DNA of 64,000 nucleotides from Moniliella sp. 'wahieum' (taxonomy: Eukaryota): contig RSEE01000025.1 of assembly GCA_003971905.1 (NCBI GenBank), positions 558,001 to 622,000 of the forward strand, in the 5' to 3' direction. Numbering within the stretch: the stretch's first letter is position 1; every line of letters starts with the position of its first letter. The notes under the pieces are model-generated. The model saw only the letters and a list, made by a program, of their open reading frames with translations, was not told where the DNA came from and did no database searches. The position numbers were made by a program, and so were the translations under genes. This document shows positions 18,940 through 45,110 of the stretch, piece by piece.

Positions 18940-19850
18940 GTCGGGGGGCGGCGGGGGTCCATGATGAGGAAGGAATATGGTGTGGCACTGGCCTCGCCGC
19001 GAGGGGGGGGGGGGGGGCGGTGCAGGGGGGGCTAATTAGGCGGGTGGTGGTGATGAGGGGGTAGTGGTGGTGGTGGGGGTGGCGGTGAGGGGAGGGTGAG
19101 GGTGAGGGTGAGGGTGGCGGTGGCGGTGGCGGGCAGGCGGGGCTGGGACGTGGGAGCGGAAGGGGCGGCGCAGAGCGGATGGAATACGGACGGGGCTTGG
19201 CTGGCCGCGTACGGGCTGCGGGCTGCCTGCACGGGGTGTTGGATGCTGTCTGAGACGCAGTACGCAGGCCCAGAGTGGATGTGATGCGTGACACGTGAGA
19301 TCTGAGATCCGAGATGCTGAGGCCGAGGGTGCGAGCTGCAATGTTCAAAGCATGCTGCGGGCACAGAGCGTGCGCCAGTGCGTCTGCCATGGCTGCCCCT
19401 GCAGTCCGATGGACGCAGCAGCATGCACTGCTCCTGCTCAGCCTGGGCGCTCACGCATGCGTGCATCACCCATCGCATGTCCCCCCGATACACGATAGCG
19501 CTTTATTAGTGCGTAGCAGCACGGGCCGGTGCCAGTCTCGGCCCCCAGGCCCCAGGTGCCACCAAGTGCCACCTCCTCGGCTGCCTCCGATCCACGGTGC
19601 TGCCGTGGCCAACGAGGTACCCGGTACGTATGCATGTGTTTCACCACCGAGCATACGGGGCACTGGCAGTCCTCGACATCGATCATCGATCATCACCCGG
19701 CCCAACCCGTAGAGAGTGGAGACATCAGCCAGCACCTCAATAGCCAGCCCAGCCAGCCCAGCTAGAGCAGCTGTAGCACGCTGTAGCAGCCCACAGCATG
19801 GGTGCCATGCAGCCGGCTGTATAGGGCCAGCCCACTGGATCCTGAGGCCT

Positions 19851-19906
19851 TGAAGCTTGAAGCTTGAAGCTTGAAGCTTGAAGCTTGAAGCTTGAAGCTT
19901 GAGGCC
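19851..19906 (+). repeat. (TGAAGCT)7 heptamer tract followed in register by TGA-GGCC
   Basis: Read directly. Longest homogeneous member of the TNA-palindrome family. Confidence 0.95.
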
Positions 19907-20479
19907 TGGGGCTGAGAGTGGTAAGCGCGAAGCTTCAACCGGTAACATGTAACAGGGAGCATTAGCATTTACCATGTAATACAAAGCGTGACGCGTGACG
20001 TGTGATCCCGATCAAAGCGTTCGCCGTCAGCGCGTCAGAGTTTTATAAGGTTGCCTACGTTACATTGCAACCCGCACGCTGAGGCAAGTTTTGAGCCAGC
20101 AGTGCGCTATCCTGCGCTGGGCGGGTGGCAAGTGACTAGCTTGACTGGCTACGGCCTGCTCCAGCCCGTCGCCTAAGTAGGTGACCACAGGCTGCTGCTG
20201 GGCCCGAAGCTTCCTTCCTACCGCGGGGCCGCACCCCACCAGTGTCCCGGCCCCAGTCCGCCACCAGCCACCTGCAGTGCTACATGTCACAGTGGCTAGT
20301 GATAGTGACATGCATGACATGTGACATGTGACATGTGACATGCCCATATCATGTATCATGCATCGTGTATCATATATCATGCATCATCCTGTCAGGGAGG
20401 GTGGTAGAGTGTCGCAGTGGCCTGCAAGCACATACTCTCGGCCAGATACTCACGCGTCACGCGCCACGCGTCACGATCG

Positions 20480-22520
20480 CCCATCGGCTCCTTTGGACCC
20501 TCTTTTCCGCTTCTCAGAACTCCCGTTTTGCATTTCAGGCCCGCCTTGACAGTGTCTGTGTTATCCTCTCCCCGCTTGCCGTTTCCATCTTTTTTCATAC
20601 CAGGAGACCACCGGCCCTGCGGCCCGGTCTGCTGGGGCTTCGCTCCCAGCCTGCTCGCCGCCTTAGCCACCGTTCCATCCTGTTCGCCCTCGTAGCCCCC
20701 GTTAGTAGAGTTGGGCACCTTCCGGTACGCAGCCAGCGCCTCCTGCGTTCCCGAGTTGAGCAGCGTGTGGTCTACCTCCATTCCTGATCCTCCGAGTGCT
20801 CCAGGCCCCATCACGCGGTAATCAGTGCGCATTACCTTCCTCCCACGCCTCGTCCCATCCTCCTCCTCAACAGTCGGCTCGCTGTGGATGTGGGTCGGGG
20901 ATGGACATGCTGCGCATGGAGCAGCACAACGGGCGGCTGGAGACCAAAACCTCTTAACATGCTTGTCGCTGAGCCGGAGGCACGGGGCTGATGGAATGGA
21001 GGAGCCAAGTGTGGCTGAGCGGGTTGCTGTGCTCGACCACATTGCGACCGCCGGCATCGTCCAGCTTCTGGAGCTGTCCTTGTCGGCTCTCCTTCCTCAT
21101 CTCCCGGCAGCGCTGGCGTTCCTTCGTAAATGCGTTCGCCGTCGCCGTGCGTGCATCCGAACGCGGTCATATCATAAGTGGTAATAAGATAGTCGTTGAC
21201 ATCGTTGGCCGCAGCACGCTATACATGGGGCGCGATACACGAGTACAGCGGGCTGCCGCATCCTCCCATCCGGAGAGGACAGCTCATGACGATGTCGAAG
21301 TGGCCATCCTTCATACCTTGGGGGTCCTCGTCGCTCTGGATCCGTCTGAACTCCGTGCAGATGAAGGCATCTATCTCGGCCAGCACATCGTTCAGCTGCC
21401 CCTCCCTCTCATCATTCTCCCCGCATGTCGCTGTCATGCGCTCGACCATCCGCACGATAGGCTCCACTCTGTTTTGCGATGCTACTCGCAGCTGAGTGAT
21501 GGGAGAAGCCAGCTATCGGGAGCGATCGCTCCAGTGATGCCTTTGGCACACAGGCCGTAGATCAGCTCCCCACAGGCCATGGGGCAGATACCTCCCGTGG
21601 TTGCCTTTTCTCCACGGGGGGGGTAAGGCGGGAGGCAAGCAGGAGCACACGGTCCGGAGCAGTTCCGTGGTAAATACCCTTGGTGAGGGCGGTGAGGAAG
21701 TCAACGGAGCTGTCGCATTCGAAGGCCGCACGTAGGAGGGGTTGGGTCCATCCGGATAGACTTGCCCCAACGTCGGGTCGAAATGTGGCAATCAAAGTGG
21801 CAAAGTCGATTTCGTCCAAATCCCCCTCGGCGTGGTTACTGTCCGTCGCACCGGCGTGGTTACTGTCCGTCGCATCGGCGGGGGTGGTGCCAGGCGGTAC
21901 CACGCGGCCTGTATGGGAAGATAGTGCGGCCGGTGGTGTTGCCCAAGGCTGTGCCCGAACCGAGTTGAATGGGTTCGCATCTCCAACAGGATGGAGCTTT
22001 TCGAGGCTTGTCTGGGTCTCTAGAGTGAGTGGGGCAATGGTGGATAAGCCGGCGAGGGTACTTGCTGCGCGGCTGAGGCAGCCCTCTCCCAGTTAAGTTG
22101 GTTGTGGTCTTGGAGACTGAGTCGGGGGATCCGCGTGTTGAAGGTCTATTCGGTATGCATATCCTTGGCAGCTTGAGGCTGGGACAAAGAAACGCTGAGC
22201 CTAAACCGAGCCGTTCCTCCGGCATGTTGTGTGGTATTATAGTACTACTACCGCCTGTACTTTTGTCCTTTATGGGTCGCAGTGGAGAGCAGGTACTGCG
22301 GACAGGTCGGGACTGGCCTAGTGCTTCTTTCCTGGCTGGCACAGCTGGGTCTACACCGAGTAGATGCGGTTCTACGTGCTCTGATGCGAAGCGATGCTTA
22401 CCAAAACATCCCCCAGCGACTAACTCCGCAGACACGCACGGGGACGGTACTTGTGAGGGTCTGGTGATGTCCCCAGCACCCCACACCTTGCCCCGGCTGG
22501 CCTGCTCCGAAGCTGTCGTC
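20480..22520 (-). mobile_element. Internally deleted CRE-clade (Cnl1/MoTeR-like) non-LTR retrotransposon remnant, copy A
   Basis: Minus-strand motifs in order: GEGCLSRAASTL...LEKLHP, SRLTP, TGGICPMACGELIY, QLRVASQNRVEPIVR, PLRMGGCG, LRLSDKHV, HSEP...RTDYRVMGPGA...EVDHT (restriction-like endonuclease start). No RT palm. Confidence 0.8.
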
Positions 22521-25988: not shown

Positions 25989-26589
25989 ATCGGGTCCAAA
26001 ACGCTCGTCAAAACCATCCAGGCCGGGGAACACTATATCTGCCCGCTTATATGTATGACATCTGAGAAGCATGCCACGGCACATGCATCGATTATGATCA
26101 CTCTCTGCCTTCAAGCCAGCTGTGTTACTCTGATTATCGATTATGCCCACTCAGTACTCATCGATCATCTGGATTGCTTGTAGCCTAATCAGTGTGCTAC
26201 TATGGGTAGCGCAGCTTGAGGCCCGCGGTACTTCTTGAAATGCTGTGGATGTGAAGATGGATGAATGTGAATCGGGCCCGATGATACTAGAGAATGCGGA
26301 TACGATACGGACTCGTAACCTCATGAACACGATGGTTGACACGAATGGTTGGCACGAATGGTTGGAGACGCTGAAGGTTGGGGTTGGTGCTCAGGCTGAG
26401 TTGAGAGCTGAGAAGATGAACTTCAACTGGCATGCATAAAAGCTTTTAATCGTGGTGAAGTGGTGAAAGCCTCATCTCGACCTTAGAAAATAGGATCCAT
26501 GCGTTAGGTAATCAACACGATGATACGTTAATCGTGCTGGAGCTGTCAGCAGCTGATCCCGTACGCCTCTGTCCTTTTCATCCACCATC

Positions 26590-27244
26590 ATGTCCTCCTT
26601 TGCCACTCCGAGACAAAGTTGCGGCGCAAGCTCGTGATTGTCGGTTCGCGCGCGCGTCGGCAAGTCATCCCTGCTCAAACGCTACACCGAGGGAAAGTTC
26701 GACGAAGTACTACCCCACCATCGAGACTGTGCTGCAGAAGGACATCCAGTACCGTGGGCGTACATTCCAGTGCGAGATCTACGACACGGCGGGGCAGGAC
26801 GAGTTCAGCATCCTCAATACACGTCACTCGCTCGGTATCCATGCATACCTCCTCGTCTTTGCCCTATCCAGCCGCGCGTCCTTTGACCTTATCACCACGA
26901 TCCACGCCAAGATCACTGATTACACTGGCACCGAAGTCATCCCCGCCGTGCTCATTGGCCAAAAGTCCGATTTGGACCAGATCCGCCAGGTGCCTGCGGA
27001 AGATGCCCAGGCGCTGGCCAAGGACCTGGGTGTACCCTATATTGAGGTGTCAGCGTTGGACAACACCAACGTCGGTGCGTACCGCTCCTTTTTGCGCAAC
27101 ACTGACGTCGTATGCTGACCCAACGAGGCGTGTTCAGACGAGGCCTTCCAGCTGGCCCTGCAAGAAAGCGAGAAGGGCATGCAGCCCGAACCATCTAGGC
27201 CTCCCTCCCCGTCGGCCAAGCAGGAAGGGTGCTTGCTTATGTGA
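26590..27244 (+). CDS. RHB1: Rheb small GTPase
   Basis: GSRAVGKSSL P-loop, YYPTIE, DTAGQDEFSILN, GIHAYLLV, GQKSDL, C-terminal CAAX CLLM. Intron 27075-27137. Confidence 0.93.
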
Positions 27245-28115
27245 TTATGCCGGTCCCAAGCTTTAATCGCTTAGCGCCGCGCGCTGAAGCCCGTACCAGC
27301 CCGTACAAGCCCTTACAAGCCCGTGCCATCCCATTTTCTCATCACCCTGAGACGACGTCTTGCTTCTCTCCCTCCTGTGTGTGTGAGAGGAGGGGGGGAG
27401 GTTACCAATGCTAGGCATGGTTTTAGCTACTTCAGCTTACCCATGAGGTCTTCCTGATCAGGTTCTACTCAATGTACATTTCTACTCCCTTTGGCCGCCT
27501 GGCAGCCGAGGCGGAGTCCTCGCGCGGCCCGCATTGGTGCATTGTGTGCTCAACTTGAGCGTTCGTGGGCTGTGGTTGTGCGAAAAGGAGGGAGGGGCGA
27601 TGGCGCGGGGAAAGCGGTGAGTGTTAACTTCTTTGGCACTCACTGCGCCAGACAAACTGAGCGGGAGAGGAGACCAGATAGAAAGGAGGCTGCATGTTCT
27701 CGAGTGGCGTGCATTCTTCTTGGGGGCGGCGGCGGGAGGAACGAGGGCAGAGCGAGACGAGGTACGCGGGAAGTGGCAGACGCGCGCGCGGCAGAATTGG
27801 AAATTGGAGTGAGCTTCCGTCTCATCGGCTGTCACGCATGTCATGCATCAGGCTTAGTGCGCGTGATGCATCTTGCAGCAGCCATGTGCGTCTCACAACT
27901 CGCGCACAAGTCGCGCTTATACGGCTCAAGTAAAGCTAGTAAAGGCAGTTGAAAGGGCTCTTGAAGCAAACCCGATGCATCTAATCAATAGCTGCCCCAT
28001 CAGAAGCGCTTCGCTGGAGCTGGCCAAGTCATCGAAGTCATCGCCAACCGACCAAATTGAAATTGAATATGGCCAGCATTTTTTGGTATTCGCATCTCTT
28101 TTACCCCCCACCGCC

Positions 28116-29014
28116 ATGCCGCGTCCACCCGAGTCGCCGACAGTGCAGCTGTCCAAGACGCTGGCCTACCTGCTGCGTCATGGCGCGCAGGCACACAAAC
28201 TTCCCATGCGCCCCGATGGGTTCGTCCCGCTCTCCGCCCTGCTCGCTGTGCCGCGGGTGAGCAAGATCCAGTTGCCCTCTCTCCCCGGCGACGACGGGGC
28301 TGCCCTACCCACGCACCCACCGAAGCCGACATTCACGCCCTCGTTGCCGCTGACAGCAAGAAACGCTACGAGCTTGTACAGGAGCAGGAAGGATGGCTCC
28401 TACGGGCTGTTCAAGGCCACAGTATCAAAGACGTGGACGCCGTTGAGATGACCCGCTTGACCGCTGCCACGCTCCCCAACCACTTGGCTGCTGCCGCGCC
28501 CTCTGCGGCGGTGGCGTCTGGGCCTCGCTACACTCTCATCCATGGCACCACTGAAACAGCGTGGGAAGCGATCCTCACCACCGGCGGGCTTCTGACCATG
28601 GGACGCAATCATATCCACCTGGCCAAGGGACTTCCTTCCGACGGAGGCGTGATCAGCGGGATGCGTTCCTCATCCTCCATTTTGGTTCATGTGGACCCCG
28701 AGAAAGTGCTGGAGCAAGGGATCGACCTTTTGGAGGCATCCAATGGGGCCGTATTGACTCCTGGGAAACCCTACAGCCCCCTACGGAGCCTTCCAAACCA
28801 ACCGCTGAATCCAACGCCGCACCCCCACCTCGAGCAGCCCAAGGCCATCGCAGAGGGACAACCTAAGTTTCCTCCACGCAAAAAGCATCCACAAGGCAAG
28901 AAAGCCAAAGCACAACGTGAACAGGGAATCCTTCCCCTGAGTTGTGTAGCCTATGTCCAACTCGCCAAGACGGGAGAGGTAATTTGGCCTACGGATGCGA
29001 ACAAGTGTGGGTAG
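28116..29014 (+). CDS. TPT1: tRNA 2'-phosphotransferase
   Basis: LSKTLAYLLRHGA, DGFV, KKRY, RAVQGHSI, HGT, MGRNHIHLA, ISGMR, SNGAVLTPG. Confidence 0.95.
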
Positions 29015-29049
29015 TGCATCTGTTCCTGGCCCCCATGGGAGATAGGCGG

Positions 29050-30352
29050 TCATAGCCTTAGCTCATAGTTGCACGATTTGCTGGGTCTGGAGGACCGTCC
29101 GGGGTAGGCGTCCGTAGTAGTATGACGTGACTTCTGAGTTTGCGTCCACGAATGAGGCGAAGAGCTCTCCTTAGCCTCGACGCCAGCCTCCTCCGCCTGC
29201 AGTAAAACGGGAGGGGAAGGGGTCTGTCGCCACAGTAAAGACAACAGATCCCAGTTTGAAGTGCTTGCTACCGACTGCACCCCCGGGCAGGAACAAGGTC
29301 CGTTTCAAAGACCAGAGCGCTCTGTTCCCCTCCATAGGCACGGGATATGCCCGTGTCAATGAGCAGGATTTGGGCCTGGGAGCAGCGCACCACGTGGCCG
29401 TCAAAATGCGGCGTATGACCCATAACGAGGTGGTTTACTGGTCCCTGAGCCAAGGCACCAGTCACATCGTGGGAAGGGTGCGTACTAAGTGCGTCCAATG
29501 CCTGGACGGCATTCCCAGGCTTCTTCTTCTGAGTCCAGAGCATAACCGCGGTACCATAGGGGCCCATCCGACCCATATAACTCTCTCTCGTCACTGGGGG
29601 TCGAGGGGGGTAAATGACCAGTGAGCTTGTCCAGTGGCATGGCAAGGAGGCGGTCAAGGAACGATTGGCCAACTTGGTTGATGTACGGTCCACGAACGGC
29701 ATAAGCAGGCGTGATGCCGCCGATGAACGAAGGATGCCCGAGGAGGGTGGGTAGCTTGGTTGGTCCAAAGTGGATGGAGACCTGGCGCTGGCCACCAGGT
29801 GTTCGGAAGGAGCGATACGACATGGTTTACCGAGTAGTTGGCACTCCATGTCTGCCCGATCCACCCCTGGTCCGACATGGCATTGCGCCGCGGCACCGGC
29901 CCCCCAAACGACTTGATGTCACCTTCTGTCACATAGCGCCAGTCCGCGGCTGCGTTCATAAACTCGTGATTTCCCAGAGAGTTGAGCACACGCCCACCAG
30001 ATAACGGCGCCTGTTCTCGCAACCGGTCAAAAGACGGTAGAGAGCAATCGTATCGTCTCCGCGGTCAACAATGTCGCCGGTGGAAACGAGGATGTCATCT
30101 CCAGCAGCCCAATTAGCATTCGAATCAATTACTCCCACCATGCGCAAGACATGATGGGCATGCTCCAAATCGCCATGCAAGTCAGCCACCGCGACCACGC
30201 GGGTGAATCCTTGACTTGGGTGGGCTTGGGCTGGAGTGGCCCCGAGGCCAGAAGAGCCAGAGGAGACAGACAAATGCACAGAGGCCAATGACAAGCTTCT
30301 GGCGCAGAATGTCCCTTACGCGTGCTCTGGTGAAAAGGCGGTTGACAGGCAT
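29050..30352 (-). CDS. Calcineurin-like metallophosphoesterase (Shewanella-like phosphatase family) with N-terminal membrane anchor
   Basis: ADLHGD, GDIVDRG, GNHE, GGITP, GPLWYRGYA, MGHTP, IDTGIS motifs. Confidence 0.9.
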
Positions 30353-30689
30353 TGTCCGTCAAGGCAGACCGTTAGGGACGTTGGTGGTGGTGACGCTCCA
30401 GGAGGCGTAGCCACGATTGGGATTTGCAGTTGTCGCGGGTTCCACATGAGCGTGAGCTTGAACATTTAAGCAATGGGCGCCCTCCCTGAGGTCCTGAGGG
30501 GCCTGAGTAACTTAGTCACAGTGACTAGTGACAAGTGACTAGTGACTAGTAAGACCTAAGGAGTTCATGGTGCGGCGCAACAGGCATCATCCATCGTCCA
30601 CCATTCACCGGTCACCATGCATCACGCAGGCTTCACGCTATCGCTTCTCTCGTAAGCGCGTAAGCCCAGGGACATTCAGGTGGTTTATA

Positions 30690-31225
30690 GGTTCTTCTCT
30701 GTTGTTAGAAAAGCCAACGGGAGGAATCCGCCCCATCGCCTGTGGGGCGCTGATCTACCGTCTGCGTGCTAAAGACCTCGTTCGGTAGATCAGCTGCCAA
30801 CAGCTGGTCTCTCCCCGGGCCTACTCAGCTGTGGGAGTAGCATCGCGTATAATGTTGGAGTGGAGGAGGTAACGTGCGGATGGTCGAGCGCATGACAGCG
30901 GCAGAGTAAGTTCAGATTGGCCTCCAGCTCCACACCTTGTGCCGTTCCACGTGCAACCAGTGTAACTGATGTGCAAGTGGCTGTCATATGTCTTCGCTTG
31001 AGCACATCATGGCTTGCACCAGCTCCCAGTCCAAGTGTGGTGCATTGCCCGAAGCGGAACGGATATGCCCTTCCTCCAGCGTGTGCGCTCCATCCCCGAC
31101 ACTCACATCCACTACGAGCCAACTGTGGAGGGAAAAGCCTGCCACAATAATACCAATAGATACTATGACTCCCGGCCCGGGTGTCTGCCACGCTTCTTCG
31201 TATCCACGCACACGCTACCTCTTTT
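30690..31225 (+). mobile_element. Heavily deleted CRE-clade retrotransposon remnant, copy B
   Basis: LLEKPTGGIRPIACGALIYRL (RT start), nucleotide match to copy A (gtgcggatggtcgagcgcatgacagcg), QIGLQLHTL..C..C...LEHIMAC zinc knuckle, THIHYEPTVE, 3' end matching copy C. Confidence 0.78.
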
Positions 31226-31273
31226 GGAGAAGGGAATGGCGGGCGCCAGGGGTCCTGACCTGTGGGCTGCTCC

Positions 31274-34200
31274 CTAGTTCGTAAACGGGTTTAGTGCCAA
31301 CAAGCAGTTCACGCCGGATGAACAGGTCACTTTGGGCGGGCGGCATTTCTTTGTCCATATTATGGCAGTGACTGCCTTAAGCTCTGTAAATGATATGTGG
31401 CTACACCGGAGAATTGAATGAGTACCGGCGAGTAGCATATATTTTCTTTGCTTAGTACAGAGAAATGCTTGGAAGCAGATGAGCAGGTGAGGCAGGACAT
31501 GGGAAGATGAAGGAACTGACAAACACCATAAGATGAGATGGGGAAGCGGGAGAGACGGATGAAGATGTATTGTGAAATCTTCGGTGGTGCCACAAACAAA
31601 ATTCATCTTCTCTTTCCTTGACATGGGTGTTCTGAACGTATGGGTGTCCTGAATGTAAAACGGAAGGATGACCGCATTTAAAGCTTCGTGATGATGTCAC
31701 TTACGGCATACCATTCGCATTACTCCAGCTGCCTCAGCTGCAACCATGTTCCCCAAAGAAAAGGAGGGAGCCAGTGAACTCTGGCGCGAAGGAGTGAAGG
31801 GGACATTTCCGTTGTCTCCTTCACTTGTTTCAAAGGAAGTCGGAGGGGTTGAGGAAAACGAGATGCTTCGAAGCGACTGAAGCGAGCCGTGCCCATGGCT
31901 ATCCAATCCTGTCATCTTGATGCTCGTACCGAGTGATGCCGTTGTTTTGCTGTCCGACATATTCTGAGCATTGAGCCCCGCCTTGTTCATTCTGGTATGG
32001 AGGGCAAGAGTGTTTTGCCCCCCCGTGGAACCGTACGGAGAAACTGGAGCATCCATGCCGGTTTCCAGGTTAAATCTACGTTAACCATTCCTTTTCCCTT
32101 CCCCGTCCCCGCTTTTTGAAGATCAAGGGTAATGTTGGTCTCTTGCTCCGGATCCAAGCGTGTCAGAGGAATTGCCGAATCACCAAGCGGTTCAGAGAGC
32201 CGATCGCATCCCAAAGGTACACTCAAAGTGACCTTCTGAGTCGCACGAGAGGCAATTACGATGGGCTCCAAGGTCTCATCGAACTTGGGACTTGACGTAT
32301 TCTTCACCACCTTCGACTTAGCCCTTCTTCTCCCTCGACAACGATGTAAACACATAAGCTAAGAGAATTGCCATCATGGTCAGCTGCCCACAATTCCTTT
32401 CCCGATATAAGGCGGACCGTAAGATAGCCGTGGTTAATAAACTGCTCCGACCAGTCCAAGTCCCACTGGGCAGGGACAAACTTAGACATCAATGTGATGG
32501 TGTTGTTGGCGCTAGAGGATCGTGTAGGTAGGTGATAGAGGTAAAATGGTAGGCTTGTAAAATGATTTGGCTAGCATTTCCTTAGTAGACCCCTCGAATT
32601 GGGCATAAACATCCCCTTCTCCCTCAATCGTCCCCTTCCGGAAACGAATATACATCTGTGAATGCGCCAGCTCCCCCACAGCTCGTTCCACAATTCGTCC
32701 AACTGAATAGACCCTCTGTATCTTGTAGGGGGTTTGGTAGGTAGGCCAGATTAAATCATCAAACCACACCTCAATAGATGTTTGGTCTGCATCGACGACC
32801 GCAGAAAGGATATTCAGCACAAATAGTCCGCTTTGGCTCTTTTTCAAGAGCTCCGAGAGGGTTGTTGGTCCCACTGATTCTCCGTCGGTCGTGTTGGCCA
32901 TAGTTTTCATTATTGTGTGCCATCTTTCCTGCGTTTTTTCCGACTCCACATCGGTCGTCATTGCATCGGCAATAACACTCTTTATTTCATCGTTTTCTTC
33001 CATTAGGGATGCTCCTGACATATCCCTCTTCCCGCTGTGCGCTGCGAGGAAGTTCACCCCTTGAATGTTGGGCGTCGGAATAAAACTGGACGCTGTACTC
33101 GATGACTCCCTTGTATTGGTTCTTGCCCACCAAGATCTGGCGATGATGCTCCTTCCCAAGTGACTTGAAGGGGACCTCACTGAACTCTTTGCTCTTTTCA
33201 GCCAATCCGGCAATAGGAATCATTACGCAGCCAAGCGGGGGGTGATGGGAAGCTTGGCGTTGATAGCAGAGAAGCTCCAACAAGACCGAGTCGTTCAGGC
33301 TGTGGACAGGGCTGTACAATGGTTGGTTCCATACAGGGTTCAAGTTGTCCTCTTGCACAGACGTCCTATCCTAATTACCCCGTGCAGCCGAAGTTGGACG
33401 TATGGATGACTCTTCCCTCCAGCAAACCCGGTATGGGCATTCTTGATGTCCTCCGCACGCTTGGCCCATACTTTGAGTATCCCAATTGGAGGCGAGTACC
33501 CCTCCCCCCCATTTGCTCCGCCCGGAATGGCTACAGGCTTCCAAACCGTCGCCAGCCGCACCTGAGCTCCATCTCCAAGGGGAAACCACTCTTGCTCCAG
33601 AGTTTTGGCTTGAATCAAGTCTGAGAGTGGTTTGGACACTTGTCCCACCACCGACGTGGTGCCAATTCGGATGAGACAACCTGAATGGTCACCATGCAAG
33701 CTTGTTTTTGGTTGATAGAAACTCCTTGGTGTAGGCCCAGTTGGGAGCACTTGTCCGCTTCTGACTAGCTGATGCCCCACCTGGGTACCATTTACCGAGA
33801 TGCAGACCCACGTCGACTGTTCATCTGCGAAAGCAGTCTTTGGAACGTCCTTCGCCTCGTATACACTTAACCGTACAATTCCCGTTTGAGACTGCGAGAA
33901 TCGGTTCCAGTTGCCCATCAGGGCTTTTAGTAGCTGTCAATACGGGGAAGTTTCAGCGAGTAATTGAGTGTTCCGTGGTACTTCCCACCAATGGTCATGC
34001 GAGCGGAAAGGCCGGTATGCTCAGTCTGGTTGACAAACTTGTCAAGAGGGAAGGAGACCGCCCCCAACCGTGTCAGGGCGGAATTCATTGAAGTTCATGA
34101 GTTGTATGGTCAAGAACCCTTGGAGGTTACGCACTAGTACGTGCTGCGTCTCATCCAGGAGGGCGTGTCAGTGGAGGAGAGAGTCTTGGTTCGGGCCTGC

Positions 34201-35925
34201 ACCTCCCCATCGTCCACCGACACGGTCACATATGGATCGGGCTTGCCTCCTAGGACGCTGACCTTTTTAATGTCGATCGCATTGGTCAATGTGACTTGCA
34301 CCACCCCAGTTGCTGCGTCAAAAGGCTGACCTCCCAACATCTCCTCGATGTTAAAGGTGAACGCATTGGGTGCATACATCATCGGGGCAAGCACATTGTC
34401 CACCTGGCTGCGGACCAAATTTGTCAAACCAGGGATGTTGTTCACGTCCCATCCAAACATGCGCCCCCCAACCGGTTTCAAGACGTAGTCATAGTACGGT
34501 GCGTCCAACAGAGTGACATCGGCTGATTGGATGTGGGGGAAATTGGTAACTAGCTTGAGCCGCAGACGAATAGATACTTGAAAGGTAAAATCCTCCAAAT
34601 CGATTGGAAGCGTAACTGTAGCCTTTCCCATGCCCAAGGTGATGGAGATGCGGATGCGTGGATTGACCAACTGGGCAGACTGCCGAACGGTGAGGTCAAT
34701 GTTATCGTTGGGAGTAAAGCTCAGTTTCCAGTCCATGACGACCATCATGGGGCGTATCAGGGAAGGTCTTGACATGCTCAAAACGAGGGGGTTTGCTCCC
34801 TAACGTAAATTCCGACCTGTTGGTTGCTCACAGTCAGAAAAATTATCTTCTCTCGCAGATGTGTTTTCAGAGAGAGTCAAACGAACAAATTCACCGATTG
34901 GACCAATTTGGGAAGAAATTGGGGGATCTGCTGTTCGACCTGAGAAACCACGATGCCGCCCACGATTGGCTCAAATATGGGCCAAAAGCGGGACAGGGAA
35001 AAGTTGAACCACTCCATAGTCTCGTACTGATCAGACATGCGCTTTCCCTTGAGCTCACGTCTAATGTTGTCCCTGAGCCGCTCGTGAGTCCGGTGCATAG
35101 AGGCATTCCAGTAGACGGCGGCCACTGAGCCCACTAGCATGGCTCCACCGAACCCTGCCCAATAAAGTAGTGGGCAATGAACGAGACAGACAGAAGAGTG
35201 GCCAAGGCAATTTGTGTGAATCCACCAAAAGCCCAAAAACTTGTCTGGAATAATGGAGGAAATCAAGTGGTATTCCCACACTAGTTTCTTGTGCTCATCC
35301 AGCTCGGTTTGTTTCCACCGTGCGAGTCTCAATGTCCGATCGCTGGACTCCGATAAACTGGGCAGAGGTGTGAAGCAGATAGCTTATGCGTTCCCATCCA
35401 CCCCTTTTCACATTGAAGGAAGTGCAGACAGAACGGGGTGAGTAGTTCAGCGGGGGGTTGAGGTAACGGGTATTGAAGGCCCGCGCCTTTATCCAACCAA
35501 TGATGGCATCTGACCGAACTCTGGCGCCCGCCTTCTTTTGGGGTTCGCAGAAAAATCGGTTTCTTTCTGTCCCTCTTGCAGGGGTGACGCGTTTGATATC
35601 CTGTAAGTTGGTGTCGGGACGGTAAGACCCGCCGAAATTCGTTCTCGGGTCAAAACGGTGTCGGACGCCAATCCCAGTCCGGAGGCGGGCTTGACGGGCT
35701 TGGAATTCGGAAAGGAGGCTTTCAAAGGGGTTTGCGACTGCATCGGTGGGTCCTAAGGCAGAAGCGGAGAGGACTGGGCAAGGACCTGGTGATGGGGCAG
35801 AGCTGGGTTGGTGATGGTGGCGCAGGGGGAAGGAAGTCAGCAAGGACGAAGTTGTGCGGGGATAAGAACTGCGTTTTAAAGGAACAAGGCGAGGACCGCA
35901 ATAGACACAACTGTGTGAGAAACAT
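31274..35925 (-). CDS. TCB: Tricalbin / extended-synaptotagmin (TM hairpin, SMP, multiple C2), divergent
   Basis: ETMEWFNFSLSRFWPIFEP, MDWKLSFTPND...VNPRI, LKPVGG...DVNNIPGL, PMMYAPN, KPDPYV, PPIGILKVW, LNPVWNQ, NHGYLTV. Introns and frameshifts, ends approximate. Confidence 0.9.
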
Positions 35926-38132
35926 GGTCGTGGCTGTGTATATATGAGAGGGTCAACCGTGTTATGCTTTCTCTCACTATACCAAGAGTGTGGAGAGTAC
36001 TGTGATGCATGATACCACGGGAGGGTACCTGCTGTGCGTAGGGAGACGGGCCACCGGGTGTGGATGTTCTTTTGCGTTGTGTCTTATGTGTGCGGTGTCA
36101 AACATAACGGCATACTGCAGCGGCCATTCATACATGCAGTGATTAGGGAGAGAGTGTGGGCGCGTTAAGTCGATGATCGAGGTGCTTTGCAACGTCCGGG
36201 CTGTACACACACTGGTGACCCACACAATCTCATTACCATAATCTGCACTACTACTAACAACAGAAGAACATATTGTTGGAATCATATAAGAGGCCTTCAT
36301 TTGAAGAATTTGATGGGGGAAACTTGAAAAGCGTAAAGCTACTTCCCCAATGCTTGTGCGCAATGCTTGCGCATGGGAGCGATGAGCTGTGCTCCACTCA
36401 CTTCACACTCACCCTCTCAAGCTCACTACTATAGTCTTCGCTGCGGAAAATAAGTTTCTGCAATATGGGTGTAGTTCTCACCACTGCGTTGTACGTTCAA
36501 TATACTCTTACTGCATACTAGTACTAGTAGTACTGATGCAATGATGACTCCTCGGACTATATTGCTGCGGCCGCGGGAGGTCCTGGCAGATATATCATGC
36601 TTTAAGCTTTACAGACGGAGCATTGTGGGGGTTTGTGACATATTAACGTTTAACCCCTACATATAATAGAACCGTCCCCCACTTGCCCCGGGTTCATGTA
36701 CTAGTATACGTATAACAGTGCGGGGGGCCGTGTGTTCGCCTGTGGGTGGTCTAGATATTGGCGCCGTTTTATTATATGTCACGGGGGGCCACAAGGGGTT
36801 GTTAAAAGGTTATATTTTGTGTGAGAGCCAACAGAGCAAGCGATTGATTCGATTAATGCTGTGTTGAGTACCAAAGATCGGAGGGGATGTGGCAAGCGTA
36901 TAGAGAGAGACCACTGCACACACCTCTTCAGTACTACTAGTATACCTGTGGTGATGACAAAAGATCTCTACGAGGTCGTATTATAGGGGTCACTGTACCG
37001 GTCACACCCCAGCACACGCACGGACCATTTGGGTTATGTGGGTATTATAATCCTGTCTCTGTGGTACAGGTACAGCCACACCGTCTACCACCGCCTGGGT
37101 ATACTACGTACCTCCTGCCACAGTCCCTAGCACTTTAATTCCTGTGCCCTCGCCGCAAGCTTTATACTGAGAGTTGGCAAAAATATGAGCAACGCTTATT
37201 TCTACGCTGCGAAGAGAGAGTGAATACTATTATATGACTTTTTTGGTGGACAGCGCTACCTTTGAATTTGTCGCCTGTTGCTGGTAAGTGTCGTTCCGGT
37301 ATCGATGGTCATCGGAATCAGATGACCCCGACTGATAGAAAAAGCTATATAGGTGGCTAATTCCGAGCACTTCCAGAACAAAGTATATCGAGTTTTGTAT
37401 AGTAGAACAGTTGCGAAGAGAGAAGAGACAAAGGAAGAAATGGGGTGCGGGGGGGCGAGTTCAGAGGGGAGCGCAATGGAAGGTGCATGTATGTGGGAAA
37501 GGCAGGTTTCTATAGTGCCAACGGCTCTGCGGAGGGACTAACCAGGGAAGTCACATCTTCATAACATACGTCACAACACTGCGGTACGGCATGGTATGTA
37601 TGCAGTTCGACACACCAGCGCCTGTCATAATATAAGACTCACAGAAATAAAGGAATCTTTTATTGCTGTTCCCCAGGACAGGAGAAGACTAGCGACGAGC
37701 AAGAAGGCGCGGAGAGAACGGGGCACTCCCCCAATACCACAGTTGATCAACAGCGGGGCTGCGTCTACCGACGAATCTGCCATCGACATCTCTACGCAAA
37801 TGAAATATGAGACCTGAGGCCGGTGAGGGTAGTATATGCACCTACATGATCACGTCGATCGCACGCGCCGTCAAGAACAGTGTTGTTGCCCCGTGTATTA
37901 TGCGGTGTGCATATCACGAAATATAGTCATCTCGAACTCATCATCGACATTAGAGTTATTTTGGAAAAAGAAAGGCAACACCGGTTGTTCTACCCCCATG
38001 ATCGGCATGATCGCGAGAATTGTGGTTTAATAAGGGATCACGATTGTCAATCTCTTGTGGGGGAAGGGAGAATCGTGCTTGAGGTAAAGACAGGAGACTC
38101 GAGCAGACTCATATAATACCAGTGATATATGT

Positions 38133-40277
38133 TTAGATGCCATGCCAGACACGCTTCAGGAACGAAGGCTTGGCTTCAGGGTCGATATCCTTGCGCATAT
38201 CGCCCTTGGGGTCGGCTTGGGGATCCTCAATGACTCGCCCATCGTTGGCCGTTCCGTCAACGGCGTTCTGGGTCTTGCCAGGTAGTAGTTCGGCATGTAC
38301 AAACCACACAGCAACGGAACAAACGACAGACACAAGCCGACAATGAACATTGGCTTCATCGTTTGGGTGTAAGCGGCCATCACCTTGATCCGGTCTGGAG
38401 ACCCCCAAGGAATGGCATGTGCGTTGGTGTACGACTTGAGGGCACTAATCACCGTCGCGGGCGAGAGACCTTGGCGCACCAAGTTCTTCTTGTAGCGTCC
38501 AGTGTAGATCGCACTGCCAATGGCCGATCCCATCGAGCTTCCGAGCTTGGACCAGAGCGCCAGGTTTGCAGTCACCATGGCGAGATCCTGGTGCGGTACA
38601 GAAGCCTGGGAGGCAACGCGCGTACCCACCACCGAGCATGCACCTCCAAGACCAATGAGGATTTGGGTAAAAGTAAGAGCAGTGGTGTTGGCATGCTTGC
38701 CTGTCGTCCAAAAGGTGATTCCCATTCCGATTATCCGCACCGACAGCCCAAACAGCTGGATAGCCTTGTAGCGGTGCGTGTATCGCAAAAACAGGCCTGC
38801 GAGGATACCAAACAGCGTCAAACACACAGTCTCGGTTTGGGTAAAATAAGACCAAGCAGAGGTGGACCATGGCGGATGACCAAGATCCATGGGTCCCAGT
38901 AGGCAGCGCGGACGGACCCCGAACCTGAAAGCACTATGTCAGCATCTCAATCGCATGCATGGGGAGGAAGTGAACGCGAACACGTACACATGTAGAACAC
39001 GTCGATCGTAGCAGAAAGAACGAAAGTCTTGTTTCCCCAAATTCGCTTGTTGACCATAGGTTCTGTTGCACCCCAGACTTCCCAAGCAAAGAAGAGCAGA
39101 AGGATGACAAATCCGCACACATCATTGCAATCATGCTTGGGTTGTCCCAGCCCCCCTTGGCGCCCCCGTTTAAACTGAAGAAGGAAGGAAGATCAAAACA
39201 AAGCCGAATGCCAAGAGGACCAGACCGAACGCGTCAATGATGACGAGAAGAGCGTAGAGTTGCTTCAGCCGAGTCATAAAGCTGACCTTCCCGTTTTCAC
39301 CGTGCGCCAGCCTCTCCGCATCAAACTTACTGGCCCCCAAGCCAAGTTCTCCCGCCTCCTTGGCACGCTTGTCGGCGTAGGTCAGAGAGGATGACTGGTG
39401 TCACAAGCACCGGGGTGATGATGCAGAACATGCCAAAGCCCCAGCGCCAGCAAGTTGGGTTGTAGTTAGGGGTTCCCGAGGCGGGACACAAGCTTCCTAC
39501 CATTGTCGATGCAACATAAGGGAGGAAGAGATAGCAAAAGTCGGTTAGGGCTGTCATGACACCACGCCATTCCAACGGCGTCATGTCCGCGATGATAATT
39601 TGGGTCACCAGGTCGAGACCTGCCTGCCCTGTACCGCAGATGACCCGTCCGACACACAGTGCCGCTCCTGTGCGAGCAGATGCAACCACAATGTACCCAA
39701 TCAGGTAAAAACCGATTGTAACTGCATATGCAATTTGCCGGGAAAATGTGTCGGAAATCTTCGCGAGGAAGGGCTTGGACACCGCAGCTGTACAGATCAC
39801 GCGCCCAAATTGTGGTTAGCGCTCGCACTCGTTCAAACCCGCAGGAAAGAGAAACTTACTGATGACGCTCTGCACCGTACTGATGGTGCCGATATACTCC
39901 GACGCCTTGAAATAACTTGTGGCGAATGTGTCGTACTTGAATGTGGACGATTCATCAAACGTGTACGCCATGGAAGTGAGAGCAAGTGAGATGTAGAGCA
40001 TCCAGGCCACTATTGAGCCACGAGCAATCACCCGGTTGAACGCCTCAACACGGTTGATGCCAGGTTGCTGGACAAGATGAGTTTCCTGAGCGTCCACTTT
40101 GGCAAAGTTTTTCTCGTTCTGATTCAGGTTGTAGGGATCCTCCTCGACCGAATCGTGCCCCCCGCCAAAGTTGTCCGCCTTGTTGAGGCTTTCAGGCGGA
40201 GAAGGCGTCTCGACCTTCTCGTTGCTAGGCATGCCGACTCCAGCAGAGGGTGCGACGTGCACGTGTTCGTTCTCCAT
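38133..40277 (-). CDS. Siderophore-iron MFS transporter (Sit1/ARN/MirB family)
   Basis: QPGINRVEA, YTFDESST..Y...ATSYF, AVSKPFLAKISD, IIIADMTPLEWRG, WRWGFGMF, RVASQASVPHQDLA. Intron 39788-39859 and one near 38925-38990. Confidence 0.92.
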
Positions 40278-40378
40278 CGGTATAGAGCAGATGAGGCCAG
40301 CGCCCGCGGTGCTAGAGCGCAGCTGTAATGGGGGAGAAGATTTGGATCAGCAACGCTCAGCTGAAAAGCAAGGGCAGT

Positions 40379-40385
40379 CTTTATA
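40379..40385 (-). promoter_or_regulatory. Candidate TATA box of the siderophore transporter
   Basis: TATAAAG on the minus strand about 100 bp upstream of the ATG at 40277. Confidence 0.5.
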
Positions 40386-41112
40386 TTTGAATCGCCATGC
40401 CTCCAACGAGCGGCATTTCCTCCTGTCTCTCGCATCGGTGAGGGCGAAGAGCGCCTCGTTTTCGTCAGCATCTCAAGTCTTGCTCTGCCCATGTGCTCAG
40501 CGCTCATGCATCATGGACCCCTTCGTCTCATCCAAGGAGAAGCAAGGCGCGTGTATAGTCCGTACCAGTGAGACCTAGCACACGCAGTGCCGCGGTGGAT
40601 ACTCGTGCCTGACATCTCTGGGACGAAGTGCCGAGGGAAAGAGCTGTTGCCCCGCCATATGACTATCACACTGTAGCGAAACACAGGGGGCTACTGCTTG
40701 ATATGCATGATACGTAGCAGCAAGTGGCTCAGCGGGGACCTACCGGTTAAAAGCCTTTGTACCGCGTATTTCCTACTACTGGCTACGGCAGCCCTACTAG
40801 TAGGGCGAGACGAACCTCCGGCCTTTGTCACTTCCGTGGAGCTTTCGAGCACGTTTTGCGGCCCCCAAACACCTGCGATTGCGCTCGCGCGGCAAGTGTG
40901 TGTGCTGGACTCGACTGTGGCCCGGTGCTCTACGGCATACTGAAAACGCTCGGTCCTCGAGAAGAGAGTGAGCAATGAGACTGGAGGGATACTGAGTACT
41001 GACCGATGACCGATGATCGAAGTGCGACCCTTTGGCCCCTTTCCGGTGCCATCAGCGCCATCAGCCACATCTCCGAACGGCCTGATCGGCCTCATCGCAC
41101 AGGCATTTTTCT

Positions 41113-41121
41113 TTATCTGAT
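41113..41121 (-). promoter_or_regulatory. SreA/Urbs1-type iron-responsive GATA site (ATCWGATAA)
   Basis: Plus-strand ttatctgat is ATCAGATAA on the minus strand, about 840 bp upstream of the transporter ATG. Confidence 0.6.
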
Positions 41122-43824
41122 CATCGATGAAACTCGAAATGAATAATTGATTGACTGCGAGAAATACATCCACCACCCACTCTCTCTACCGGGGTCTCAG
41201 ATCCCAGGCAACAACAACCACAGCCAGGAGCGAGCATGTGGGAGACCTGAGAGGAGCCATGCGTTCCAGCCTGTTCCAGCTGGTTGAATCAGCAGCAACG
41301 CCAAAACCTTCTCGATCATCGATCAGACTCAAGCTTCAAGCTATAGCTTCAAGCTTCAAGATGATGGAACTCATGTAAATGAGGCACTGAGGCCTGTGCC
41401 TGAAGGGCAACTGGTACTTCTATAGTTTAGAATCAAGCGCTTGAAGCACACTTTGGGTTTTGGTGGATATACTGGCCCCGGCCGCCATACGCACACCTCT
41501 GATTTTGAGTTGGCGGCTGCCGCACTCTCAGCCGATATGGCGAACAGAGCCCAAAATCCTTCCCTCTTTTTGACACGGCCTTCGCGGCTGCCTTGTTCGC
41601 AGTGCTCAGCACAGGACTCCATACGCAATACGGTTAAACATTGAACGTTGTACAAGGCTGTTTTCATCTGAAAAGGTCGGGGTGGTTTTCGTGCATTGTG
41701 TACAGTAGCATGTGACACGTGTGACACACCCCGCGTAATAGGTATCTCCGCAGATGTTCGCATGATGCATGATGCATGATGCATGGTGGATGCTCGATGC
41801 CTCAAACGGGGCAAGAGGGTTGGTCATTTAATATTTATCCCTTCCCTCTCGAAGAGCTTGAAGCTTGACTAATTAATGATTCACGATCTGACGGGTGGAG
41901 AAAGAGATCCCATCAGTGCATCAGTACTCAATTAATAATGTACTCAGTTTTCGTGCACTGCCGCAAGCTCTCATGGAACTGTATAGGCCTGTGGGGCCAG
42001 GCATTCGCCTCTCGTCTGCACGCGTGGTCTACGCACACACTCGCTTCCTCGTCGGACGGCACTCACATCAAACTACTGGGCTGCCACTGCAGTCATTTAT
42101 CGACAAAAAGATTCAAGCTCTTCAAGCTCTTCAAGCTCTTCAAGCTCTTCAAGCACCATGCATCATGCATCAAGCTTCAAGGCAACAAGTCTTGCATATC
42201 TGATGTCACCGGTCACCGGTCAGCCGCTCACCTGTCAATGTCACACGTCACGGGAAAATATAATAGGCCGCAATGGGGCTGTACCATATATGTGCAAGCT
42301 GTGTCGAGTATCGATATATCGATCACCCACTCTGGATGCAAAAGGCACAAGGAGCACGGAGCGTACTGCGTAAGGCTTACGGCGTAAGCGTGTAAGGCCT
42401 AAGGCCTAAGGCCTCAGCCTGAGGCCTGATGCCGGCTTGGGGGGCCAGAAAAGGCCAGCCTAAGGCCCGCGTTACGCTAAAGGGGGTCTGAGACGGTGAG
42501 CGTCTCCCTGGGCCTGAGCTTGAGGGCCGGATGCACTGATGCCTGACGAGTACGATGAGTACCTCGTACAGGGATGTGGGTGGTGCTGCACACTGAGGCT
42601 CAGTCCTGAGGTAGTGAGTAATAATGCTTCGTGCTTAGTACTTACACTTATTTACCGGCTGAGGCGCTGATCCATTGACATTGAATATTGATGTATGATG
42701 CATGATGCATGATGTGCCGATGCCCTCACGGAATCATTAATCACATCAGCGTTGGTGAAACATGCCAAGCCCTCGCACCTGGCCACACGCAACGCGCCAC
42801 CCACTCGGGACAACTGTAGGCGGGGAGGCGGTGGCCAAAATTTCTGGTATCTGATTTGCGATATTTATAGGCCACAAGCCGGCGGTCACCGCTCACCCGT
42901 CAAGCTCAACCTTCTTCAAGCTCCAAGCTCCAAGCTTCAAGCTCCAAGCACCAAGCTCATCAAGCTTCAAGCTTCATGCATCATGAAAGGACGCTTCAAA
43001 TCTTATAGATCTTTTAGATCTTAGACCTTACCGGCCGTCTGGTCATTTGACCTTTGACCGGTGACAGGGACTAGGGACTAGTATTACTGCGAGCGTTTGT
43101 TACAGTATGCACCTTGCCTTTTCTGGTCGTTAGGCGCGCCAACAGCGCCTATATCCCTCTTCCTTCTGTTCCTTTTCTTCCCTCTTCACCATACTGCATT
43201 CGTTCTACTTCTCACCCATGTGTGTTGGCCGAACCACCTGCCGCGATGCCGAGAGAACATGCCGTCTCTGCCGGTCAGAATGCACAGGTTCCAACGGTAC
43301 CTTTTTACCCCCCCCACTTCTAGCTGTATGATGCCCTGTGAAGACAACCCCCTCTCCACCTATGGGTCTTGGCGAAAGGATTACGGATAGTCGATGACGC
43401 GCCGCCGACGGAAACTGAGTCCAGAGCTGGCCTGACGCTCTGGGGACCCACCGTTGCTTTGGCGCCGTCACTATATGTTCACACGTTCGGACTGTTGTGC
43501 CTGGGCCTGACCAAAAAAACATATGTCTTCAACGTAGGACAGACTGTCGTGCCTGAAAAAAAACCCTGTCAGATGCCCACTCCTTTCCCTCGACCACACA
43601 TCTTCCTTAGCCGGGCCCGATGAGAACCGGCAGCAACAATAATGGCATGCACCGGTCACCGGTTATGCTGCGTTCCAGAAAACGTGTTGGGGCTGAACGT
43701 GCCGAACCCGAAAACACCAAGTTTCTTCGTGCCTGTGAGGTGGCCCCTCTTCGCCTCCGTTAGGGCATCTTCGGAAGGCGCCCCTAGAAACATAACCCTC
43801 CTTCCTGCTAGATCGCGTCCATTT

Positions 43825-44355
43825 CATTGACAGAGCTTAAGGCTGGGACAGGGGGAACGCTACGTCTAAACCTAACCGTTCATCTTGCGGCTAGATTGTA
43901 TTGGATGGCTGGAACGGTCTCGGTCGGAACATAATACGCGTTTCGTGCTGAATCGCGCCACCGATAACTGGGATAGGGGGAAGCATTCAGAAACACGCGC
44001 TGCGGGGAACCGGTTTGTCTCCTTAAGTTCCCTCAGACTCAGGTTGATTCGACTTGATTCTCTTGGTTCTCGTGTACAACACCACTAAAGTCGTTCTGGT
44101 CCAGCGGGTGTTGTTGCTCAGTCCGACGGGAAAACGTACGCGTGAAGAACGGTTGGGGAATGAGTACTGAGTGGATAGTGTTGAACGGACACAGTCCCGC
44201 AACCTAAACTGCTGCGGGGCGAGGACGGGTGCAAACTCGGGAAAACCTATTACGGTTGAATGGAAGTCCTTACCGATATGATGCCATATCATTGACAGAG
44301 GTTAAGGCGGGGACAAGGAAACGCTCTACGCCTAAACCGACCCGTTCATCTTGCG
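43825..44355. repeat. Repeat family C: ~65-bp unit at 43825-43889 and 44290-44355 (also 22158-22222)
   Basis: cattgacagag.ttaaggc.gggaca...aacgc...ctaaacc...ccgttcatcttgcg is shared between copies. Confidence 0.85.
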
Positions 44356-44439: not shown

Positions 44440-45110
44440 CGTTCCCATACCCGACGTAGCGCATGTGGACACGGATAACGTGGTAGACATCCGAGCGAGG
44501 AACCATTTCCATTGAGACTCAGTAGCCAAATTCTTCCAATGGGCAAACATCTTGCCCGCTGTCTTGGTGCCGCAGTATCCTCGCGTCGTCAAAACCAGGG
44601 GGAAAAACGGCTCTTGGGTGCGTCCCTGGTACTGGGAGTTCTTGTCGCATTCTGCTTGTTCAAGCAGCCGAAGCAACTCCTTCTCCCGGCGTTCCATTCC
44701 AGGGGCCCCGTCGCTGTGCTCTCATGCACCACCCTCCGGTACGCGCTCTGCGCCTCATGCGTTCCCGTGTCGCGCAGCGTGTGGTCGACCTCCATTCCGG
44801 TTCCTCCCAGTGCTCCAGGCCCCATCACGCGGTAGTCGGTGCGCCTAGCCCTCCGTCCGCGCCTCGTCCCAGCCTCTTCCTCCACAGCCAGTGGTTCCTT
44901 GCGGACGTGGGTGTCGGGGATGGAGCGTATACTCTCTTTTATAGTAGTTCCAACCATTTTCTCTACCCTATCGGAGTCAAACTATGTAAGCCCTCCCTTG
45001 AATGTGAGGTGAGGCGAGGCGTGGCAAATTCCGAGTCGACTGTACGGGAGGCATGTATCTAGTGTGGCCAGCATGTGTTGACTGGAGGATGTGTGGCCTA
45101 TTCAGTGCAA
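44440..45110 (-). mobile_element. 3' fragment of CRE-clade retrotransposon (restriction-like endonuclease domain), copy C
   Basis: SIPDTHVRKEP...RRTDYRVMGPGALGGTGMEVDHT...DKNSQYQGRTQEPFFPLVLTTRG...FLARMS. Nucleotide similarity to 20720-20900. Confidence 0.82.

Follow-up and report, generated by a model that had tools for sequence, protein, structure and literature searches.

Several classes of cut-and-paste transposon leave a telltale joint when they excise. Footprints of hAT elements such as Ac/Ds, of Transib and of MULE elements, and likewise the P nucleotides of V(D)J recombination, combine a direct duplication of the target with short inverted copies of the flank, giving a palindromic joint whose bases are supplied by the flanking DNA. 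The duplicated target differs between families: hAT elements duplicate 8 bp of the form nTnnnnAn, Transib elements 5 bp, and PIF/Harbinger elements a 3-bp T-N-A. Hairpins in the flanking DNA are made by MULE, hAT, Transib and RAG1, according to the available part of PMC5499845, and the available part of PMC5873905 describes palindromic P-nucleotide footprints in fungi, where Pso2 cleaves the hairpins. Here we analyse a stretch of 64,000 nucleotides from Moniliella sp. 'wahieum' (GCA_003971905.1, contig RSEE01000025.1, positions 558,001 to 622,000; hereafter the window, numbered from its first base) that contains many tracts of T-N-A triplets (TNA) separated by 4-bp palindromic cores. Like the joints above, these tracts carry direct copies of a target, short inverted copies of the flank and a palindrome built from flank-supplied bases.

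The tracts differ from the footprints of hairpin-forming transposons in having a single product length, a gain of 7 bp that includes two inverted nucleotides. The target duplication that they imply is 7 bp (or 5 bp) long and centred on TNA, in contrast to the 8-bp duplication of hAT elements. The base at the centre of the joint also differs: Ac/Ds joints have it complemented, and the hAT joint as set out in the accessible text of PMC5873905 carries at its centre the complement of the neighbouring base, whereas here the centre base is unchanged. Two groups of DNA transposon known from basidiomycete fungi, hAT7 in rust fungi and Kyakuja in Laccaria, make 7-bp duplications (PMC12730594, in the portion available), the length required by the model that we favour below. 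hAT7 belongs to the superfamily known for flank hairpins; Kyakuja has CA..TG ends without inverted repeats, again as the available portion of PMC12730594 has it.

Other known processes share single features with the tracts. PIF/Harbinger and related IS5-type elements have the central T-N/W-A, symmetric on both strands, but make a 3-bp duplication and excise precisely (PMC4561436, in the part available), in contrast to the 7-bp gain here. The hexamer TNATNA occurs 48 times in the window, inside the range of 31 to 53 seen at most other spacings, and is not clearly enriched. Canonical footprints of Tc1/mariner elements (TA, element-end bases, TA) are likewise uniform, palindromic and bracketed by duplicated target, but their inserts are element ends, identical at every site, whereas here each site's own flank dictates the bases. 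Quasi-palindrome template switches and snap-back insertions of the Pol-theta type also insert an inverted copy of adjacent sequence at a broken or stalled end. Neither the length nor the site of such events is constant, and they usually complete a palindrome that was imperfect; here the TNA, the gain of seven and its division into five plus two are fixed.

Discrete 7-bp insertions at T-N-A

Palindromic cores between TNA triplets far exceed expectation. All results refer to the 64-kb window and to an outside control of metagenome contigs described below. We searched the window for TNA-NNNN-TNA with a palindromic NNNN and found 55 tracts with the same N in both triplets, holding 74 cores, against simulated means of 1.96 tracts (maximum 7) under an order-1 Markov model and 1.65 (maximum 6) under an order-3 model, with 200 simulations each. 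These 55 tracts comprise 43 with a single core, 7 homogeneous runs and 5 mixed tracts; the set grows to 59 when N may differ between the triplets. The cores represent 15 of the 16 possible 4-bp palindromes.

The pattern is strict in both motif and spacing. When any triplet is repeated across four bases, those four bases are palindromic in 9 of 12 cases for TTA, 28 of 42 for TCA, 32 of 58 for TGA and 5 of 10 for TAA, compared with a background frequency of 4-bp palindromes of 6.0%. The next-best of the other 60 triplets is ATG (10 of 43 palindromic cores), a score that TGATGCA arrays produce as a register artefact; the palindromic-core pattern is restricted to T-N-A triplets. Only spacing 4 is enriched between equal TNAs, with 122 occurrences, 74 of them palindromic. 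Spacings 0–3 and 5–14 count 14 to 68, their palindromic spacers amount to a handful at most, and the highest of these counts, 68 at spacing 11, corresponds to two units of an array. Among the 48 non-palindromic cases at spacing 4, 4 are perfect 7-bp tandem copies. TCA contributes 14 non-palindromic cases, against about 16 by chance on a rough by-hand estimate, which indicates that the tracts are not eroded leftovers of long arrays.

Reading outward from the palindromes defines the site further. The window contains 261 hexamers in which A and T bracket a 4-bp palindrome, and 80 of them have T at −2 together with A at +2; the two N are the same in 74 of these 80. Half-forms with the T only or the A only occur at chance level, and hexamers beginning with T have the T..A context in 2 of 171 cases. 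The ancestral site therefore needs both T and A, and its N is copied, not complemented.

The cores follow the flanks. With a tract written as ab-TNA-core-TNA-cd, and primes marking complements, a core obeys the left rule if it reads b'a'ab and the right rule if it reads cdd'c'. In the 59 tracts in which N is free to differ, the left rule holds in 35 and the right rule in 25 (chance 1/16 per side); counted by eye, 24 obey the left only and 14 the right only, with no dependence on N = C or G seen. An earlier note on this DNA had proposed such templating by the adjacent dinucleotide, and its proposal withstands the exclusion of homogeneous runs: single-core tracts obey the left rule in 27 of 43 cases, the right in 17, one side only in 28, both in 8 and either in 36, where chance predicts 12% (binomial P = 1.3e-26). 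Sliding the flank by one or two bases reduces the matches to 6, 1, 2 and 1 of 43. Mixed tracts obey both sides in three of five cases (26151, 40497, 42163) and one side in the other two (20370, 42960), and their cores always come in the same order, left-derived, then right-derived.

Most tracts reduce to a simple ancestral site. We asked of each of the 55 same-N tracts whether its cores can be written as (revcomp(ab)+ab)^m (cd+revcomp(cd))^n, where revcomp denotes the reverse complement, and so collapse to ab-TNA-cd. Full collapse succeeded for 45 of the 55, compared with a mean of 6.9 and a maximum of 14 in 2000 shuffles that exchanged flanks among tracts. Nine of the 45 reconstructed targets are fully palindromic, against about 6% expected; beyond this class, partial palindromy of the target is not enriched (8/36 and 9/36, read by hand).

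A scan that makes no assumption about the triplet recovers the same event. On both strands we looked for pairs of identical 5-mers, Z and Z, separated only by the reverse complement of the first two bases of Z. This gave 132 matches, with TNA at positions 3–5 of Z in 87. Inverted fillers of 0, 1, 3 and 4 bases show no enrichment for TNA (3/444, 12/178, 0/7 and 0/6), so the inverted piece is exactly two bases long. The mirror product, whose filler is the reverse complement of the suffix at the TNA end, is not enriched either, TNA being carried by 10 of 132. In 42 single-core tracts the run of period-7 identity is 5 in 11, 6 in 12, 7 in 8, more than 7 in 5 and less than 5 in 6, the longer runs being somewhat more frequent than expected from chance extension. 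Runs of at least 7 would follow from a plain 7-bp tandem duplication; the peak at 5–6 therefore identifies five direct plus two inverted bases as the basic product, within a discrete unit of 12 nt.

These results show each unit to be a discrete 7-bp insertion at T-N-A, templated by the two adjoining bases. In the left type, ab-TNA-cd becomes ab-TNA-b'a'ab-TNA-cd, with T, N and A copied directly; in the right type it becomes ab-TNA-cdd'c'-TNA-cd. Tracts of the form (b'a'ab)^m (cdd'c')^n are built by repeated events with later slippage. The 5-bp duplication plus two inverted bases in register, as the earlier note had it, is borne out both by the 5-mer scan and by the identity runs.

The insertions avoid coding DNA and are specific to this genome or lineage. 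None of the 55 tracts lies inside a Pfam-supported open reading frame (ORF) segment, although such segments make up 17.9% of the bases and hold 383 of 2332 TNA sites. The tracts average about 0.9 per kb; of the 55, 20 start within 40001–44000, a gene-free stretch. Our control consisted of 698,837 bases of unrelated metagenome contigs, fetched via a scan for three-unit arrays (121 loci) and analysed with the seeds left out. There the four bases between two TNAs are palindromic in 42 of 769 cases (5.5%), the background level. The control has 40 single-core tracts, 15 of them obeying a side, which makes such tracts about 12-fold rarer per kb there than in the window, and the dense multi-core pattern was not seen at any of the 121 loci. 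The pattern thus belongs to this genome or lineage and not to DNA replication generally. Two short control contigs carry a few small rule-obeying tracts of their own: L087 has ct-TGA-(AGCT)3-ATAT-TGA-at at 295–335, and L098 has four single-core TCA tracts that obey the flank rule at 160–310. Given these, the process may not be unique to this genome.

Candidate mechanisms

We tentatively favour an origin in transposition, which we consider quite possible: the tracts would be stacked excision footprints of a cut-and-paste DNA transposon that makes TNA-centred 7-bp target duplications and flank hairpins. Such an element would duplicate a 7-bp target abTNAcd (nnTNAnn), centred on N, and its excision would leave perfect covalent hairpins at both flanks. 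Artemis/RAG biochemistry provides a precedent for opening hairpins 2 nt off the tip. If each hairpin were nicked 2 nt 3' of its tip, each end would be left with a self-complementary 3' overhang of 4 nt, cdd'c' on one and b'a'ab on the other, and with a recessed 5' end that begins exactly at the T of TNA. The two ends would then abut flush. Ligation of the top strand would yield the right-type product and ligation of the bottom strand the left-type product, and the 4-nt mismatch would be cleared by replication or repair. The scheme predicts a gain of always 7 bp, equal to the duplication length, a core palindromic for one flank, an unchanged N and two-fold symmetry. It would also be expected to give similar numbers of left and right products, to be set beside the eye tally of 24 left-only and 14 right-only, and its overhangs would be fully cohesive at palindromic targets, the class found in 9 of 45 reconstructions.

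Two general hallmarks of flank-hairpin footprints are present. Direct copies of the target flank the joint, the 5-nt abTNA being repeated 7 nt apart, and the joint bases are the inverted complement of the flank, in 36 of 43 single-core tracts and in the 45 of 55 tracts that collapse. The arithmetic of five plus two in the earlier note's excision-footprint reading fits, while its appeal to hAT chemistry fails on the centre base: N stays the same in 74 of 80 hexamers, and the tracts show T-N-A with A....T hexamers instead of A-N-T with T....A.

Several observations weigh against a transposon origin. An unchanged N does not match hAT chemistry, presumably including that of hAT7, in which the central position is taken by the complement of the neighbouring base. 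Hairpin footprints are expected to vary in P-nucleotide length and to include deletions, whereas the window is enriched for the 2-nt filler and spacing 4 only; Ds excision in Candida albicans, for example, gave 28 footprint types among 128 excisions, the two commonest accounting for 35 and 18 (PMC5873905, in the part available). Ten of the 55 tracts do not collapse, among them three exceptions already listed in the earlier note. We found no transposase domain in 150 of the 266 stop-to-stop ORFs of at least 110 aa (picked by eye, mostly longer) or in 30 largely overlapping ORFs with ATG, GTG or TTG starts. Nor does the window contain an insertion that combines a TNA-centred 3-, 5- or 7-bp duplication with terminal inverted repeats; the only hits were artefacts made by the tracts themselves. 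A count of 55 tracts in 64 kb would demand a very active element. Finally, two steps of the scheme, opening each hairpin at 2 nt and ligating the ends flush, are ones that we infer from Artemis/RAG biochemistry.

The main rival, which we regard as somewhat unlikely, is a template switch during host replication or repair that involves no mobile element. A 3' end at ...abTNA would pair through its T and A with a same-sense strand, or fold back with TNA as the loop, copy b and a as b'a', return to the template 7 nt back and recopy abTNA. T-N-A is the sole trinucleotide class that self-pairs at both ends, which would explain the need for T and A, and a uniform product, a high density and the lack of an element in the window all suit an intrinsic process. 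The return step, however, would mostly proceed without microhomology: the core is repeated in the four bases to the left of TNA in only about 9 of the 42 single-core tracts. Nothing in the switch limits the inverted copy to precisely 2 nt. The fold-back variant relies on a 2-bp stem with a 3-nt loop, which is very weak, and the absence of the pattern from 699 kb of other organisms' DNA argues against a general polymerase error. That absence would sit well with an enzyme of this lineage other than a conventional transposase, such as a domesticated transposase or a tyrosine recombinase with a 7-bp crossover, that cuts TNA and reseals it aberrantly in a fixed way. A strict site, a strict gain of 7 and two-fold symmetry speak for such a nuclease or recombinase, and the uniformity of the product suggests enzyme-determined steps, not host end joining. 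We nevertheless judge it unlikely: we found no reaction path to a direct duplication of 5–7 bp without prior insertion or fill-in, and no candidate gene among the window ORFs scanned. A Transib- or RAG-like version of the earlier note's footprint reading, with a 5-bp duplication (abTNA or TNAcd), one hairpin opened 2 nt off centre to give two P nucleotides and the other at the tip, yields the observed product of five plus two exactly, and flank hairpins are formed by Transib and RAG1 in the available text of PMC5499845. It places TNA at one edge of the 5-mer, though, an asymmetry at odds with the two-fold symmetry of a transpososome; it requires the two hairpins to be opened unequally each time; and it requires P nucleotides only from the side away from TNA, the mirror product abTNA-TN'-abTNA being unenriched at 10 of 132. 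This version appears quite unlikely.

Two familiar explanations fare worse. It is very unlikely that the tracts originated by microsatellite slippage or microhomology-mediated tandem duplication of existing palindromic heptamers. Seven tracts are homogeneous, with up to 7 cores, and the window holds 47 perfect 7-bp tandem duplications, compared with 5 in shuffles and with 3 and 7 in the window itself at periods 8 and 9; a 5-bp repeat 7 bp apart is also the type of substrate proposed for microhomology-mediated duplication in the accessible part of 10.64898/2026.02.28.708716, and slippage or such duplication probably explains array growth. Neither can make a new palindromic core, as the earlier note had argued for slippage and as the identity runs and the single-core tracts, 28 of 43 obeying one side only and 8 of 43 both, support. 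Slippage microsatellites would show full-unit identity and an unconstrained unit, whereas here identity peaks at 5–6 and not at 7 or more, the unit is limited to TNA plus palindrome, no more than the 7 tracts are homogeneous, and the count of 14 non-palindromic TCA cases against a rough expectation of about 16 indicates that the tracts are not decayed arrays. The identity runs, the filler scan and the flank rule in single-core tracts together refute slippage as the origin and leave it as a growth step. Canonical footprints that keep an element's terminal bases between two TNA copies, in the manner of Tc1/mariner or PIF/Harbinger, are extremely improbable. TNA resembles the 3-bp PIF/Harbinger target, and any element with inverted ends would make TNA+xy+y'x'+TNA a palindrome, but the cores are of 15 different kinds and follow their flanks, so that the collapse test (45 of 55 against 6.9 shuffled) refutes this origin; mPing, of the PIF/Harbinger type, excises precisely in the available part of PMC4561436.

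Further geometries were rejected on paper. Cuts with a 3-nt stagger and fill-in, hairpins with a TNA loop, Top1- or Top2-type breaks and filled 7-nt 5' overhangs would complement N, set the TNAs at some other spacing than 4 or leave the core without a palindrome. Hairpins offset by 1 nt, as in hAT, with 7- or 8-bp duplications predict A-N-T triplets or a complemented N, and both predictions are contradicted by the hexamer counts given above.

In full-text literature searches we found neither TNA-plus-palindrome heptamers nor flank-templated 7-bp insertions described. It is possible that the tracts reflect an undescribed, enzyme-determined mutational process that targets T-N-A, inserts seven flank-templated bases, five direct and two inverted, and is the main source of heptanucleotide repeats in the regulatory DNA of this genome. 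An uncharacterised transposase or domesticated nuclease could lie behind it, one that both forms flank hairpins and opens them, at fixed positions. If the tracts are excision footprints, the genome preserves a dense and readable record of past transposon visits, and geometry alone predicts the element's duplication length, target and hairpin chemistry; if no element is responsible, they represent a new site-specific signature of templated insertion. Either way they offer a concrete route of microsatellite birth, in which every event leaves two copies of a 5-bp sequence 7 bp apart, from which expansion can proceed. Gene-free stretches also acquire strings of 6-bp palindromes in this way, in some cases immediately upstream of Pfam-domain ORFs.

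Individual tracts and their surroundings

Mixed tracts display both templates side by side. The three tracts that the earlier note quoted in full read letter for letter as it gave them. At 26149..26169, ac-TCA-GTAC-TCA-TCGA-TCA-tc takes its first core from the left flank and its second from the right, collapsing with m=1 and n=1; a single-core tract nearby, ga-TTA-TCGA-TTA-tg at 26132..26145, obeys the left rule. Both sides are likewise obeyed by gc-TCA-GCGC-TCA-TGCA-TCA-tg at 40495..40515, which passes the collapse test. The third, at-TGA-ATAT-TGA-TGTA-TGA-TGCA-TGA-TGCA-TGA-tg at 42680..42714, has ATAT from its left flank and TGCA from its right, with TGTA one base off TGCA. A further mixed tract absent from that note, ca-TCA-TGCA-TCA-AGCT-TCA-ag at 42161..42181, also follows both flanks. 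In ta-TCA-TATA-TCA-TGCA-TCA-tc (20368..20388) the left core agrees with its flank and the right is one base off, while ca-TCA-AGCT-TCA-AGCT-TCA-TGCA-TCA-tg (42958..42985) agrees on the right and not on the left and is preceded by a degenerate CAAGCTC array.

The remaining tracts range from homogeneous arrays to exceptions. The longest homogeneous array is ct-TGA-(AGCT-TGA)x7 at 19849..19902, whose core matches the left flank. The cases reported as one-sided, at 14678, 40993 and 44161, are indeed so, and the three exceptions stand. One of them, tg-TCA-CCGG-TCA-CCGG-TCA-gc at 42206..42222, matches neither flank; in tg-TCA-TGCA-TCA-gg at 27841..27850 the left flank dinucleotide starts the core instead of ending it; the last is tt-TGA-CCGG-TGA-ca at 43055..43064.

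Two regions are especially rich in tracts. The densest cluster, at 40993..44170, contains no Pfam-supported ORF and lies between an MFS-transporter ORF and a PTPLA-domain ORF. A second cluster, at 19296..20459, has the cores GATC, TCGA, AGCT, CATG, CGCG, TATA and TGCA.

Other short tandem repeats accompany the tracts. Perfect 7-bp tandem duplications other than TNA plus palindrome number 22, where shuffles gave 5 for all of period 7. Non-palindromic heptamer arrays occur at 41000–41016 (TGACCGA), 42917–42936 (CAAGCTC) and 20347–20360 (TATCATG); each is one base off neighbouring TNA-plus-palindrome units, and they are probably mutated units expanded by slippage. Directly upstream of heptamer tracts, at 42112–42154, lies a perfect 9-bp array, TTCAAGCTC repeated 4.8 times. 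Its unit has the form ab-TNA-b'a'ab (CT-TCA-AGCT), that is, a heptamer unit plus the flank dinucleotide, and the rule of 7-bp gain does not account for the array.

Longer repeats are also present. A foldback, MITE-like repeat at 63402–63882 forms an inverted structure of about 447 bp that is 69% self-complementary, with an extra inverted pair at 63622–63655 and 63849–63882. Its right arm recurs at 6296–6533 with 92% identity; no clear target duplication was found at the repeat. Three dispersed, non-coding repeat families of 70–200 bp and 75–85% identity lie near tract clusters: one at 44730–44924 and 20716–20905, another, in inverted orientation, at 30707–30903 and 21426–21611, and a third at 43819–43889, 44284–44355 and 22158–22227. 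They have no internal tracts and no evident duplications or inverted ends.

The window resembles nuclear DNA of a fungus-like eukaryote, judging by Pfam families that include tricalbin-type C2 and MUG190-like SMP domains and by an intron-bearing transfer RNA (tRNA) gene. Its GC content runs from 51 to 68% across 4-kb steps. Housekeeping domains recognised with Pfam in broken ORFs are NIF phosphatase, MFS transporters, histidine kinase with a receiver domain, Ras, Tpt1, tricalbin-type C2, MUG190-like SMP, PTPLA, aspartate-semialdehyde dehydrogenase, OHCU decarboxylase and protein kinase. The 101-nt tRNA gene, at 61768–61868 on the minus strand, scores 51.8 bits with Rfam, was missed by ARAGORN and presumably contains an intron. 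Unbroken runs of G stand in non-coding DNA at 14218–14239 (22 bases), 19003–19017 (15) and 57599–57618 (20).

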